Shown here: positions 30,001 to 33,000 of the stretch, one piece after another
How positions within the stretch are numbered: position 1 is the first letter of the stretch
Layout: each line of letters starts with the position of its first letter
From: an uncultured Poribacteria bacterium
Lineage (GTDB): Bacteria > Poribacteria > WGA-4E > WGA-3G
Assembly (NCBI GenBank): GCA_951813565.1
Contig: OX638351.1
Span: 4,768,001 to 4,832,000 of the forward strand
Direction: 5' to 3'
DNA: 64,000 nucleotides
Made by a program: the position numbers

Positions 30001-33000
30001 GCATCTAAAAAGCACCTCCGACGTAATCCACGCAAGGCGGATTTTTTTAACGTCTACAAGGTATTATAGGACTTTTGCATTTTTTGTCAACAACTTTTTT
30101 GAATTTTATCAAAAAATATAATTTACAGAGCGGACGCACAGTGGGTAAATGTCCAAAAACGCCAAATGTCAAATGCGCATGCTGCGTTGATTCCCTCCAA
30201 CAAGAGAAAAGAGTATTCATGTCAAAAACTTTACACACTCTTCCAATCGCAATCATTGCTGAATCTCTGACTTTGTGTTATAATTAAACCGAGATGACAG
30301 AAAAGATTATAGACATCAGGAGAAAGGGATGACAGATAAAAAAGAAAACGGACATCGCGGCTTACCTATTTGCACGCTCGGTGCAACAGGACACGGGAAA
30401 ACGACATTGACAGCGGCGATAGCAAAGGTCGTTGCAAGAATAGGGTCAATCCGTTCAAACATCGGAAATCAATTTGAACAACAAGTGCCTTTTCACCATC
30501 CTATCCGCGAAGGGGTTAGTATTACCTATCGTGCAATTGATTACGAAACCAGCGGCAAGTTCTATTCACAGGTGGACTGTGAAACACAGTTGGATATTGT
30601 CAAATTGTTGGTTAGTCGTTCATTTGCTATCCAAGGAGCAATTTGGGTGGTGGATGCTGTTGATGGTGTTACGCAAGCGTCTGAGGAACATCTTCGCATA
30701 GCGAATCAAATAAATATGCCTACAGTAATTTCCTTTCTCAATACACGAAATATAGCAAAAGACGATGAATTGATAGATATCTGTCGCCAAGAGATGCGTG
30801 ATTTACTCACTAAATATGAATGGGAAGAACAAACCAGTCCGATAATTGTCGGTGATGCCAATAAGGCTTTGAACTATAAAGGCGATCGGATCGGTTCTGA
30901 TCAGTGGAAACCAATTGTTGATCTCATATTTGCGATGAATCGGTGTATGCCAGCACCTATCAATCCTGAAAGTTTGCCGCCGATTATGCCGATCTATGAA
31001 ATTGTTGAGGAGTTGAAGGAACGTGTAACGGTGCGTGGTGAAATTGTACAAGGACATCTTGCTGTTGGACAAGCGGTAGATATTGTTGGTAAAGGCGATC
31101 GGATAAAGACAAAGTGTCTTAGCATTAAAGAGAACGAGGTGAGTGTTGAGTCTGAACCGGATTGGTTGTCTGTTGGACAGGTGCTGTGTCCACCGAAGAC
31201 TATAAAGGCGCATTCTGAATTTACTGCTCTCATCTATCTGCTTACACAAGAAGAGAGCGGCACACATATCCCACTTATTGAGAATGATAAACCTGAAATA
31301 CACTTATGGGGTATTGATATACCATCGCGTTTACAACTTCCACCAGATTTATCAATTGTTACACCCGGCGCGAATGCCCATGTTTCATTTGTTCTTGAAT
31401 TACCGCTTGCAATGGAAGTCGGCACAACATTTGAGGTGAAGAAAATGGGATCACGGATAGGACTCGGTGTTGTGACTGCGGTTGTATAATTTGCCTTTGA
31501 ATCGTACTATCGCGCAGTGGTAATTGCATCACATAATGTGAGGTCACCAGTATACAAAGCACGCCCTATAATCGCGCCACTCGCACCGATTTCCTTCAAT
31601 GCTTCAACATCAGAAAGTGACGTCACCCCTCCTGAAGCGATAACATTTGCGGACACTGCTTTAATAATATCTGCAGTAGCGTCAACGTTAGGTCCTTTGA
31701 GCATACCGTCGCTTTTGATGTCGGTGTAAATAAGTGTTTGGACTTCAGCCATCTCCACAGCAAATTCAACTGCAGATTTTTGAGATACTTCTAACCATCC
31801 GTGTGTTGCGACCATACCGTCTCTCGCGTCAATACCTACAGCAATACGTTCCCCATATTTTTCACAGGCTTGTTTCACTAAACTCGGTTGCTTAAGTGCT
31901 GCAGTGCCTAAAATCACGCGGTGCACACCTAACGCCAAAACGGCTTCCAACTGCTCCATATCTCTTATACCGCCTCCAAGTTGAATAGGGATGTCAAGTA
32001 CATCAACCATCTCACGGACAATGTGTAGATTTGCCGATTCACCCTGAAACGCACCATCTAAATCAACAAGGTGTAAGTATTCTGCGCCTTCTGCATGCCA
32101 CCGCGTTGCCATTTCCACAGGTGAATCTGAAAAGACAGTCTCCTGTTCCGCGATTCCCTGTACCAGATTTACACACTTGCCACCACGTAGGTCTATTGCC
32201 GGTAAAATTTGCACTGTTGTTCCTTTCCACTATTCTTCTCGGAAGATTCCGAGTAACTTCAATTGCGCTATTGAGATAATAGCGATAATGATAAATAACA
32301 CCCATCCGATTGTTGCTGCGTAGCCGAGACGCATAAACTGAAAGCCGTTTTTGTAAAGATACATCACAATGGTTGAGCCAGCATCAGCAGGTTCACCGCC
32401 ATTCGTTAAAATATATGGCAGGTCAAAGAGTTGAAATGAACCAATCATAGATACGACAATCACAAAGGCAATAACTGGTCGTAAAGAGGGGAGCGTGATA
32501 TGCACAAACGACTGCCACCAATTCGCACCGTCGACCGCCGCTGCCTCATACAATTCCTGTCGAATTCCTTGTAATCCTGCTAAAAAGTAGATCATGTTGA
32601 ATCCTGCCCACTGCCAAACACCTGTTAGTATAACCGCAGGCATTACATATTTACCCTCACTTAGCCAGCCTATTTCCTTACCAAATAGTATAAATTCATT
32701 GTTGATTAATCCGGCGCGTTGGTCATAGATAAGATTAAATATAATTGCAACAAATACACCAGCAACCAGGACAGGGGCGAAGAAGGCGAGTCGCAGAAAA
32801 TTCTTTCCTTTAACGAACTTTGCGTTGAGCAGAATTGCGAGTAGTAATGCTATCGGTAATTGGAGTATGAGCGTGCCAAGTGCAAAATATGTCGTATTCC
32901 ATAGTGATTTCCAGAAAATCGGGTCACGAAATAGGTCTGTAAAGTTACTGAAGCCAACAAAGATTCTACTTTGGAATCCGCGCATCTCATAAAAACTCAT

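Follow-up and report, generated by a model that had tools for sequence, protein, structure and literature searches.

A poribacterial EF-Tu paralogue kept under purifying selection after loss of its GTPase switch residues

Few proteins are as conserved or as thoroughly studied as EF-Tu. The window analysed here, a 64,000-nucleotide stretch of the genome of an uncultured poribacterium, contains a gene for a second, strongly divergent EF-Tu-like protein, and we asked what such a protein is and what it may be for. The gene is an intact reading frame of 386 codons (Table 1), preceded by a Shine-Dalgarno sequence; AGGAG-like sites also precede the majority of its orthologues when the upstream 20 nt are compared. 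Its product is ∼32% identical to EF-Tu in an alignment that spans the full length of both proteins, as an earlier note on this DNA had described. The Pfam model GTP_EFTU (PF00009) recognizes it with 69.6 bits (gathering threshold 26.5), which places it in the superfamily, and GTP_EFTU_D3 matches residues 291-385 with 50.3 bits (threshold 27). No match to GTP_EFTU_D2 (PF03144) was obtained at E<=1. The NCBIfam EF-Tu models were missed by a wide distance, with 219.6 bits for TIGR00485 (cut-off 522.4), less than half of the equivalog cut-off, and 227.8 bits for NF000766 (cut-off 449); both outcomes agree with the searches reported before. The SelB model TIGR00475 reached only 36.3 bits (cut-off 242.25), within the G domain, and the protein is not a SelB by this measure. 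The closest solved structure is that of EF-Tu (6gfu, E 6.3e-62, residues 11-385 versus 12-392). The true tuf of the same genome lies elsewhere (C1:124886-126082, minus strand; 399 aa, 717 bits versus 214 bits for the paralogue) and adjoins fusA in the str operon, while the paralogue gene is solitary. Its identity as an EF-Tu paralogue separate from the true tuf is firm.

Table 1. Coordinates in the window of the EF-Tu paralogue gene and of the parts of its product discussed in the text
Feature	Position	Strand	Remarks
EF-Tu paralogue gene	30329..31489	+	386 aa, ATG start; stop codon 31487-31489
Shine-Dalgarno AGGAG	30318..30322	+	7-11 nt 5' of the paralogue ATG
P-loop GATGHGKT, residues 18-25 (G1 kept)	30380..30403	+	GK[ST] in 18/22 paralogues, deleted in 4
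Former switch I, residues 53-66	30485..30526	+	Mg/gamma-phosphate Thr (E. coli T61) is Ser here (S64), variable family-wide
Former G3/switch II start, residues 83-87, DCETQ for DCPGH	30575..30589	+	Column counts
Former G4, residues 138-141, NTRN for NKxD	30740..30751	+	K136 kept in 7/22, D138 in 3/22
Helix D, residues 145-162	30761..30814	+	Exposed acidic/hydrophobic face of EF-Tu kept; model helix 146-162
Former G5, residues 175-178, GDAN for GSAL (SAL to DAN)	30851..30862	+	S173 column D17 N4 Q1
Domain 2, ∼residues 210-290	30956..31198	+	Remodelled pocket; new invariant motifs GKGDRIKT and AEPGW-type
Junction K267/E268	31127..31132	+	E. coli residues 260-273 (14 residues) without counterpart
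Domain 3, residues 291-386	31199..31486	+	Invariant replacements D320, W327, K372

The distribution of the gene was analysed with a family profile. A total of 156 out of 159 genomes of the order, including the present one, score at family level. The three exceptions (G106, G076 and G028) each give a single match at EF-Tu level; completeness is 85-86% for two of them, and the third, G076, carries 15% contamination. The earlier description of the gene as a trait of the order is borne out inside the order, but not at its limits: intermediate forms were detected in 2 out of 17 other genomes of the phylum, one in family f6 (G127, 346 bits) and one in family f7 (G128, 333 bits), with scores of 248-274 bits for tuf. 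Their absence from six outside genomes, as previously stated, was a result of the E<=1e-75 threshold. Over the whole phylum, 158 genomes thus have the gene and 10 show tuf only. The search of 1.84 billion representatives gave three clusters above the EF-Tu level (<=256 bits), at 649, 371 and 355 bits, and not two as counted before.

The phylogenetic analysis recovered the paralogues as one clade (support 100, and again 99 in a tree of 69 rows). Its successive sister lineages, at the family's base, are the f7 and f6 forms, and the branching order agrees with the families. The origin of the clade relative to poribacterial tuf is an open polytomy in the first tree. In the 69-row tree the rows closest to it are other long-branch clusters, such as P0010, a grouping that long-branch attraction likely produced.

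Selection was assessed in eight full-length within-genus pairs, after disregarding 9 out of 29 rows in one run as mis-trimmed fragments of 14-18 codons. The dN/dS ratio of the paralogue was 0.078-0.135 at dS 0.44-0.79, compared with 0.051-0.080 for the tuf genes of the same genomes. Its dN was 1.7-3.7 times that of tuf, so 'far faster than EF-Tu', as had been proposed, overstates the difference. The frame is intact, with no stops within the matches, in every genome examined. Because dN/dS is 0.08-0.13 and the gene is present in 156 of the 159 genomes, it is a working gene: a single-copy, vertically inherited paralogue kept by purifying selection in one class-level lineage of Poribacteria. In these respects the previous view of a functional, separate paralogue holds. 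The decay of the GTPase motifs described below is progressive and differs from lineage to lineage, as it might in a functionless duplicate on its way to loss. The selection data already contradict that explanation, to which we give practically no credence: the frame is undamaged, dN/dS is 0.08-0.17, 40 conserved positions shared with EF-Tu stand beside 35 that are specific to the family, and the fold is predicted with confidence.

To see which parts of EF-Tu have been retained and which lost, we aligned the paralogue both to the tuf product of its own genome and to that of E. coli. Columns were counted over 22 paralogues, the two basal forms (f6 and f7) and 11 EF-Tus, and reference columns carry E. 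coli EF-Tu numbering. The P-loop had been reported as intact and the other GTPase signatures as lost. The second part was confirmed by alignment, with GVSI for GITI in switch I, DCETQ and NTRN, and SAL has gone besides (DAN). The first part is correct for the gene in the window, but not family-wide: in four paralogues, all from family f4 (G016, G012, G024 and G020), three residues including GK[ST] are deleted. The column of T61 contains glycine in 11 paralogues, tyrosine in five, serine in four, and aspartate and histidine in one each. In the G3 box, G83 is kept in 1/22, H84 in 13/22 and D80 in 21/22. Both gamma-phosphate sensors are counted as missing from the 22 paralogues and both basal forms, the G83 column itself keeping its glycine in that single paralogue. 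A retention scan gave the lowest retention of EF-Tu residues for the former switch I (0.02-0.14), a region predicted as a beta-hairpin in the AF2 model. At the other extreme stand the P-loop, helix A and D80, which 18-22 of the 22 paralogues retain. This pattern of motifs fits a protein that would be unable to act as a GTPase switch, and that 18 paralogues keep the P-loop so strictly suggests a continuing importance of nucleotide binding in most lineages. With catalytic and switch residues gone, the fold kept and selection acting, the protein has the sequence and fold features of a putative pseudo-GTPase.

The losses reach the aminoacyl end. We take H66, E215, D216, F218, T228, E259, R262 and N273 to be the residues of the aminoacyl/A76 pocket of EF-Tu. 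The first five correspond to A69, Y223, E224, V226 and R236 in the paralogue, E259 corresponds to K267, and R262 and N273 fall in the deleted segment 260-273, leaving none of the pocket as it is in EF-Tu. The gap in domain 2 had been put at about 20 residues; it comes to 14 here, a figure that depends on the alignment. In family f3 the same junction bears variable inserts of ∼8 to 70 residues. Since the aminoacyl-end positions are all replaced or deleted, canonical binding of aa-tRNA by this protein appears unlikely from its sequence, and of the 'aminoacyl-tRNA-binding fold with a new role' suggested in the earlier note it is the fold that remains. Domain 3 has also been remodelled: Y326 is changed to D, R333 to W and E378 to K in 22/22 paralogues and both basal forms. 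Of the 210 columns that are invariant in EF-Tu, just 33 are conserved in 20 or more of the 22 paralogues.

Thus the gamma-phosphate sensors (Thr and Gly), the guanine-specificity boxes, the aminoacyl-A76 pocket and, in this genus, the catalytic His are lost, and the three-domain fold is retained. EF-Tu depends on the lost parts to carry aa-tRNA in a GTP-driven way, and the paralogue therefore presumably has a different job than tRNA delivery. One candidate is that of a nucleotide-dependent carrier of changed specificity, whose P-loop would bind ATP or another nucleotide and whose remodelled, more basic domain 3 face (K371-K372 for R377-E378) would carry tRNA-like or other structured RNA without the aminoacyl grip. 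The retention of P-loop, helix A and D80 would suit such a carrier, as would the invariance of K89 and the invariant changes at E378 and G379, which we take to be T-stem contacts. Nevertheless, we consider it improbable. Neither gamma-phosphate sensor is left, the four forms without a P-loop are still under selection (dN/dS 0.13-0.17 among them), and R288 and R318, presumably the binders of the 5' end and T-stem in EF-Tu, are lost. Moreover, Rfam and tRNA scans revealed no relevant RNA gene near the paralogue, and the tmRNA of this genome, previously called a mini-tmRNA, is an ordinary one of 350 nt according to ARAGORN.

The AF2 model of the paralogue (pLDDT 91.9, pTM 0.88) has three domains in the order and fold of EF-Tu, with domain 2 still modelled as a beta-barrel. 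Comparison by VIA matched it to GDP-form EF-Tu with Z 42-46 and 2.1-2.6 Å over about 370 residues (1tui: Z 44.6, 2.1 Å, 374 residues), versus Z 30.4 and 7.9 Å for 2c78 and Z 28.9 and 8.8 Å for 2c77, both GTP-analogue forms. From the model we infer that the paralogue adopts the open, GDP-type form, one that AlphaFold may be biased to predict; the genome's own tuf, folded as a control from 12 sequences of 80-95% identity, reached a pLDDT of 58.6 and was unusable.

The structural matches of the model include solved structures of EF-Tu bound to Tse6 and to CdiA/CdiI, which mark EF-Tu as a frequent target of attack. A paralogue could accordingly serve as a decoy for toxins, phage factors or elfamycin-type antibiotics, leaving ribosomes unblocked, and its changes at A375 and G316, which we take to be kirromycin-resistance positions of EF-Tu, might be read in that sense. 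This possibility is very remote. Nearly every genome of the order has the gene, in single copy and by vertical descent, at dN/dS ∼0.1, unlike the patchy pattern expected of defence genes; PADLOC returned no match for the paralogue or the five ORFs upstream; and a protein that has lost most of the EF-Tu surface, to judge from the invariant columns, would be a poor mimic.

The part of EF-Tu that is best preserved is helix D. In the retention scan it forms the top 13-residue window of the whole protein (0.86, versus 0.69 for the P-loop and helix A). D142, E144, L145 and E152 are found in 22/22 paralogues and E155 in 20/22, and position 148 is I, M or L in all of them. In the protein encoded in the window, E144, L148 and E152 correspond to E147, I151 and E155. 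The exposed residues were assigned by a helical-wheel calculation. An excerpt of one study names helix D of EF-Tu (residues 144-156) as a site of interaction with EF-Ts and L7/L12 (PMC5574714), and an excerpt of another states that L148A causes a five-fold lower ribosome association (PMC5770553). Because the exposed face of this helix is the best-preserved feature of EF-Tu, the paralogue might dock on the translation machinery through helix D and bind a lineage-specific ligand on domains 2 and 3, a combination that we regard as possible yet somewhat doubtful. Conservation of the helix could be partly structural. Domain 2 segments of EF-Tu touch the 30S subunit, and a factor-site binding mode is weakened by the remodelling or deletion of these segments in the paralogue. 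The EF-Ts option is weakened too, as other EF-Ts contacts named in the first excerpt (PMC5574714), P-loop and switch II, are degenerate or deleted in paralogues.

Gene neighbourhoods were compared across the families. In family f1 the gene block 3' of the paralogue, beginning with a convergent hisF, is syntenic. Nothing in the neighbourhood is common across families, and no translation gene lies nearby. Cluster c1, which recurs among the neighbours, encodes a Gfo/Idh/MocA oxidoreductase; Poribacteria are rich in this family. Near the paralogue an M20 peptidase was seen twice (L055 and L097), probably by chance. Scanning for promoters and terminators gave five promoter-like sites, with 3.9 expected, and no terminators, an uninformative outcome. 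A 153-nt contig identical to positions 30510-30662 comes from a run merely guessed to be RNA and says nothing for or against expression.

The lack of a translation gene nearby is compatible with a scaffold or moonlighting protein that acts outside translation (chaperone-like, cytoskeleton-associated or host-facing) and in which the EF-Tu fold is a mere frame for the GKGDRIKT, AEPGW and W327 surfaces. In its favour, 14 positions are conserved in the family as a residue other than the conserved one of EF-Tu and 21 more are conserved where EF-Tu varies. We nonetheless hold this to be unlikely, as it leaves the helix D face, the best-kept part of EF-Tu, unexplained. A search for fusions of 677-2000 aa, which could have pointed to another pathway, gave none at E<=1e-70, a negative of little weight, and Protein Atlas returned ordinary EF-Tu clusters only.

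Our tentative preference is for a switch-less adaptor of EF-Tu fold, open in the GDP-type shape and still docking on the translation machinery, although we would not call it probable. In this proposal the paralogue is a pseudo-GTPase. A nucleotide or phosphate may still be bound by its P-loop in most lineages, in the manner of a fixed cofactor. The retained helix D face would dock, as in EF-Tu, on the C-terminal domain of bL12 or the N-terminal domain of EF-Ts, and the remodelled invariant surfaces of domains 2 and 3 would bind the lineage-specific ligand. In this genome EF-Ts is encoded at C1:2709879-2710469 and bL12 at C1:60037-60432. The likely effect would be modulation of translation, by occupation of the stalk or factor site or by titration of EF-Ts, and not elongation. 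In the basal f6 and f7 forms the P-loop, NKID, His84 and an EDVF-type motif are still present and domain 2 has its full length; the switch-I Thr and the DxxG Gly are already gone, and D320, W327 and K372 are already there. In one sub-lineage, within f4, the P-loop has been lost besides and the gene is still kept. The losses may thus have begun with the gamma-phosphate sensors and the remodelling of domain 3, continued with the pocket and guanine specificity and ended with the P-loop. Extant genomes appear to preserve these stages, in the f6/f7 forms, in most of the order and in those f4 forms that have no P-loop.

A fold under strong selection from which switch, pocket and, in one branch, P-loop have been dismantled indicates that the frame of EF-Tu can be put to new use without GTP. 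If docking on bL12 or EF-Ts were true, the paralogue would represent a translation regulator of a novel type, from an uncultured phylum of symbionts, and a natural test of the nucleotide-independent surfaces of EF-Tu. In its fullest version, which is unlikely as a whole, the proposal would make it the first pseudo-GTPase of bacteria to have arisen from EF-Tu itself, frozen open, with helix D on the bL12 stalk or holding EF-Ts, a lineage-specific translation brake or parking factor of slow-growing sponge symbionts whose steps of origin are preserved.

The literature search found no description of such a paralogue, within a coverage that leaves out most subscription journals. With EF-Tu (tuf; TIGR00485) the paralogue shares the three-domain architecture, P-loop, helix A, helix D face and domain 3 core; it differs in lacking the switch-I Thr, DxxG Gly, NKxD, SAL and, in this genus, the His, and in its replaced or deleted pocket. 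An excerpt of a 2015 survey of translational GTPases presents the actinomycete actEF-Tu/Tuf3 proteins as the sole EF-Tu-like subfamily that can be clearly told apart from EF-Tu, and as condition-specific translation factors (PMC4342817). They too derive from a divergent second EF-Tu gene that escaped gene conversion, but are working elongation factors by their description there, whereas the poribacterial paralogue is without switch and pocket.

An excerpt on Balon and hibernating ribosomes describes how EF-Tu(GDP) in its open form can occupy idle ribosomes, where its domain I contacts bL12 without a GTPase cycle (PMC10901736). Our model matches the EF-Tu chain of that complex (8rdw) with Z 43.4 and 2.4 Å. 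By contrast, the Balon partner is missing: PF18854, PF10116 and PF03465 gave no matches in the genome studied here, and PF18854 (Balon/baeRF) none in 176 genomes of the phylum, with positive controls in B. subtilis and Thermus. The domain 2 and 3 surfaces of the paralogue are also remodelled, and because the canonical HPF hibernation factor is present there is no gap in hibernation factors to fill. Among eukaryotes, Ski7, which we take to be a pseudo-GTPase, is likewise an EF1-family GTPase paralogue re-used as an adaptor. The survey excerpt names it as a paralogue of Hbs1 (PMC4342817). The poribacterial protein differs from Ski7 in being bacterial, in deriving from EF-Tu itself and in having no N-terminal extension, and its family shows three further losses, those of guanine specificity, of the domain 2 pocket and finally of the P-loop.

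The EF-Tu-like gene is the object that an earlier note had described, and its coordinates held when reading frame, start codon and family matches were rechecked (table). Two Pfam models match the product, that for the G domain of EF-Tu at 69.6 bits and that for its domain 3 at 50.3 bits; the domain 2 model has no match at E<=1. Four NCBIfam EF-Tu models cover nearly its full length at 219.6-227.8 bits, under half of their cut-offs (449-522 bits), and the SelB, EF-1alpha and EF-G models match far more weakly. When solved structures were searched by sequence, the best 59 matches were EF-Tu chains, headed by 6gfu (E 6.3e-62, residues 11-385 versus 12-392). 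The source genome, one contig and 95% complete, encodes a canonical tuf of 399 aa adjoining fusA, which scores 717 bits with TIGR00485 versus 214 bits for the paralogue; the two proteins are 32% identical.

Our alignment sets 22 paralogues, drawn from four families of the order WGA-4E, beside two basal forms from outside it, 10 poribacterial EF-Tus and the E. coli EF-Tu, which supplies the residue numbering (derived by tool). The motif decay reported previously was borne out: in the paralogue, Ser replaces T61 of switch I (GVSI-type), and DCETQ, NTRN and DAN occupy the DCPGH, NKxD and SAL sites. The P-loop, described as intact, is so in this protein (GATGHGKT) but not across the family, as three of its residues are deleted in 4 of the 22 (G016, G012, G024 and G020, two genera of family f4). 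The 11 EF-Tus share 210 invariant columns, of which only 33 are retained by 20 or more of the 22 paralogues. Judged from its motifs, the protein is firmly predicted to be a pseudo-GTPase-type EF-Tu paralogue that could not act as an elongation factor.

Features of the gene, its surroundings and its product (protein positions in E. coli EF-Tu numbering; retention as the fraction or number of paralogues)
Feature	Position	Strand	Observation
Paralogue ORF	window 30329-31489	+	386 codons, ATG start
AGGAG	7-11 nt 5' of paralogue ATG	+	upstream sequence
Variable island	window 25150-29697	-	five ORFs: 374, 313, 143, 246, 85 aa
Repeat spacer	window 29698-30328		631 nt, 5' of paralogue
Spacer element, ~430 nt	window 29698-30125		~6 genome copies
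Spacer unit, ~95 nt	window near 29757-29852		>100 genome copies
Second spacer unit	window near 30148-30230		~60 genome copies
IS630-family transposase	window 33876-34708	+	two adjacent ORFs, HTH_Tnp_IS630 (112 aa) and DDE_3 (154 aa)
AAA_2/ClpB_D2-small ATPase, G128 (f7)	locus L098 1880-3448	+	522 aa; same strand, 219 nt after basal paralogue
tmRNA	C1:2195363-2195712		ordinary, 350 nt, tag ADQELALAA
'Permuted' tmRNA call	C1:593527-594166		overlaps a tRNA and an apparent rRNA gene 5' end
Helix D	142-154		retention 0.86, ranked first
P-loop and helix A			retention 0.69
Switch I			retention 0.02-0.14
Deleted domain 2 stretch			retention 0.05
Domain 3 segment	322-334		retention 0.14
P-loop GK[ST]			18/22
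Switch I Thr	T61		0/22
DxxG Gly	G83		1/22
His	H84		13/22
Lys	K136		7/22
Asp	D138		3/22
Ser	S173		0/22

Searching 121 genomes of the order with one sequence revealed a copy, 44-90% identical, in almost every genome, alongside tuf at 31-34%; a profile of the 22 aligned paralogues (A1) gave family-level scores in 156 of 159. The other three (G106, G076 and G028) have one EF-Tu-level match only; G076 is 15% contaminated, and completeness is 85-86% for the other two. The gene is thus an order-wide trait, as had been claimed, but is not confined to the order: 2 of 17 genomes outside it hold a member, G127 of family f6 (346 bits) and G128 of family f7 (333 bits), compared with 248-274 bits for EF-Tu with the same profile. 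Ten of the 17 have EF-Tu only, and five are uninformative because even tuf was unmatched. These five (G124, G125, G126, G131 and G122; threshold E<=1e-30) are up to 95% complete, and the odd absence of even tuf may reflect sequence missing from the data. Among 1.84 billion cluster representatives, the profile search placed three clusters (649, 371 and 355 bits), rather than the two counted before, above the EF-Tu level (<=256 bits). Family members bear the public names 'GTP-binding protein', 'hypothetical protein' and 'elongation factor Tu' of Candidatus Poribacteria.

In a 37-row tree, which recovers the families, all 22 paralogues fall into a single clade (support 100), with the f7 and then the f6 form as successive sisters (100, 94); the P-loop-less forms are a derived clade within f4. 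A 69-row tree again united the family (99), without placing it relative to poribacterial tuf. Another divergent EF-Tu-like cluster, P0010 (396 aa; G3 intact as DFPGH, G4 SKTD, P-loop GHSQHGKT), attaches to the stem of the family in trees, probably by long-branch attraction. Both basal forms retain the P-loop, NKID, His84, the full length of domain 2 and an EDVF-type motif; both have Pro at the switch-I Thr, lack the DxxG Gly (DCVNH, DCVDH) and already show the family's domain 3 changes (Y326 to D320, R333 to W327 and E378 to K372). We propose that a duplication would have preceded the splitting off of f6 and f7, that the gamma-phosphate sensors would have been lost early, along with domain 3 remodelling, that the domain 2 pocket and guanine specificity would have gone next, and that the P-loop would have been lost last, in one branch.

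In eight full-length, same-genus pairs (dS 0.44-0.79; 9 of 29 rows were left out as mis-trimmed fragments), dN/dS was 0.078-0.135 for the paralogue and 0.051-0.080 for tuf in the same genome pairs. Compared with tuf, dN of the paralogue was 1.7-2.2 times as high within the genus and 2.8-3.7 times as high in more distant pairs, where dS is saturated. The description 'fast-evolving' therefore applies in a relative sense only, since dN is 1.7-3.7 times that of tuf and the identity of poribacterial tuf itself drops, within the order, to 81-83%. The P-loop-less f4 forms have dN/dS of 0.13-0.17, so the selected function needs no P-loop in that branch. The paralogue is a working gene, and we firmly conclude that selection has kept it throughout a class-level lineage of Poribacteria; set beside these ratios, a relic is exceedingly improbable.

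The aminoacyl-A76 pocket of EF-Tu comprises H66, E215, D216, F218, T228, E259, R262 and N273. All eight positions are replaced in the paralogue or lie within a stretch that has no counterpart there (E. coli 260-273). This site is an unconstrained loop, because exactly there the f3 paralogues (L055-L059) carry variable inserts of ~8 to 70 residues, of low complexity and with a high content of P, S, G and E. A role as RNA carrier, with nucleotide use changed, is unlikely; the P-loop kept in most paralogues speaks for it, and the P-loop deletion in four of them against it.

Retention of EF-Tu-invariant residues was scanned in 13-residue windows (table). Segments 322-334, 279-291 and 248-260 have low entropy within the family, the old EF-Tu residues having given way to others that are now conserved (NDKPEIHLW, AEPGW and GDRIKT). 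In helix D, D142, E144, L145 and E152 are retained in 22/22 paralogues and E155 in 20/22, and every one of the 22 has I, M or L at the L148 position; a helical-wheel estimate, not derived from coordinates, puts E144, L148, E152 and E155 on the exposed face. A published account has helix D (144-156) of EF-Tu contacting EF-Ts and L7/L12 (PMC5574714), and another, citing Kothe 2004, has L148A cutting the ribosome association rate five-fold (PMC5770553).

An AlphaFold2 model built on A1 (pLDDT 91.9, pTM 0.88) shows the former switch I as a beta-hairpin. Its best Foldseek matches are EF-Tu structures (TM 0.80-0.89), some labelled GDP complexes. With VIA-align, open GDP forms superposed at Z 42-46 and 2.1-2.6 A (1tui, Z 44.6, with 374 residues superposed at 2.1 A; 8rdw, ribosome-bound EF-Tu(GDP) with Balon, Z 43.4, 2.4 A), EF-Ts-bound forms at Z about 35 and 3.6-3.9 A, and the GTP-analogue forms 2c78 and 2c77 at Z 30.4 and 28.9 (7.9 and 8.8 A). 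The open shape may come partly from a default AlphaFold2 preference for that form, because the control fold of the genome's own tuf had too shallow an alignment (pLDDT 58.6). We infer that the paralogue may serve as an adaptor that lacks the switch and keeps the open form. More tentatively, it might dock via helix D on bL12 or EF-Ts, its remodelled domain 2 and 3 surfaces taking a new ligand. The genome encodes bL12, HPF and just one EF-Ts, a short form (197 aa). A decoy is quite improbable.

The gene stands alone, divergent from the upstream variable island and convergent with downstream hisF. The downstream block, hisF first, is syntenic in family f1; other families have assorted metabolic genes as neighbours, with none common across families. 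PADLOC gave no match for the paralogue, no RNA genes lie near it, and no fused, longer forms turned up, a negative of little weight. With helix D so well kept, a scaffold outside translation seems doubtful. An open EF-Tu(GDP)-Balon complex sits on idle ribosomes, according to a published account (PMC10901736), and Balon was therefore sought as a partner of the presumed adaptor; a Balon-type gene is absent from the source genome and from 176/176 genomes of the phylum, in searches whose positive controls matched. No sequencing run on record as RNA held the gene, which has no bearing on expression either way.

At the repeat spacer, public DNA contigs end and depth rises 10- to 50-fold. The five island ORFs have no Pfam or PADLOC match; the island is missing at the same place in relatives, and only its 374-aa ORF has a counterpart at the locus of a relative with a 90% identical paralogue. 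The split transposase is either frameshifted or broken. The ATPase was seen beside no other family member. No 'mini-tmRNA', as once attributed to this genome, was seen: ARAGORN gives the ordinary tmRNA, and its second call looks false because of its overlaps (table).

Our searches, with most subscription journals outside their coverage, found no literature that deals with a pseudo-GTPase derived from EF-Tu or with this gene of Poribacteria. Passages of a 2015 survey of translational GTPases name the actinomycete actEF-Tu as the only distinct EF-Tu-like subfamily and describe it as a condition-specific translation factor (PMC4342817).
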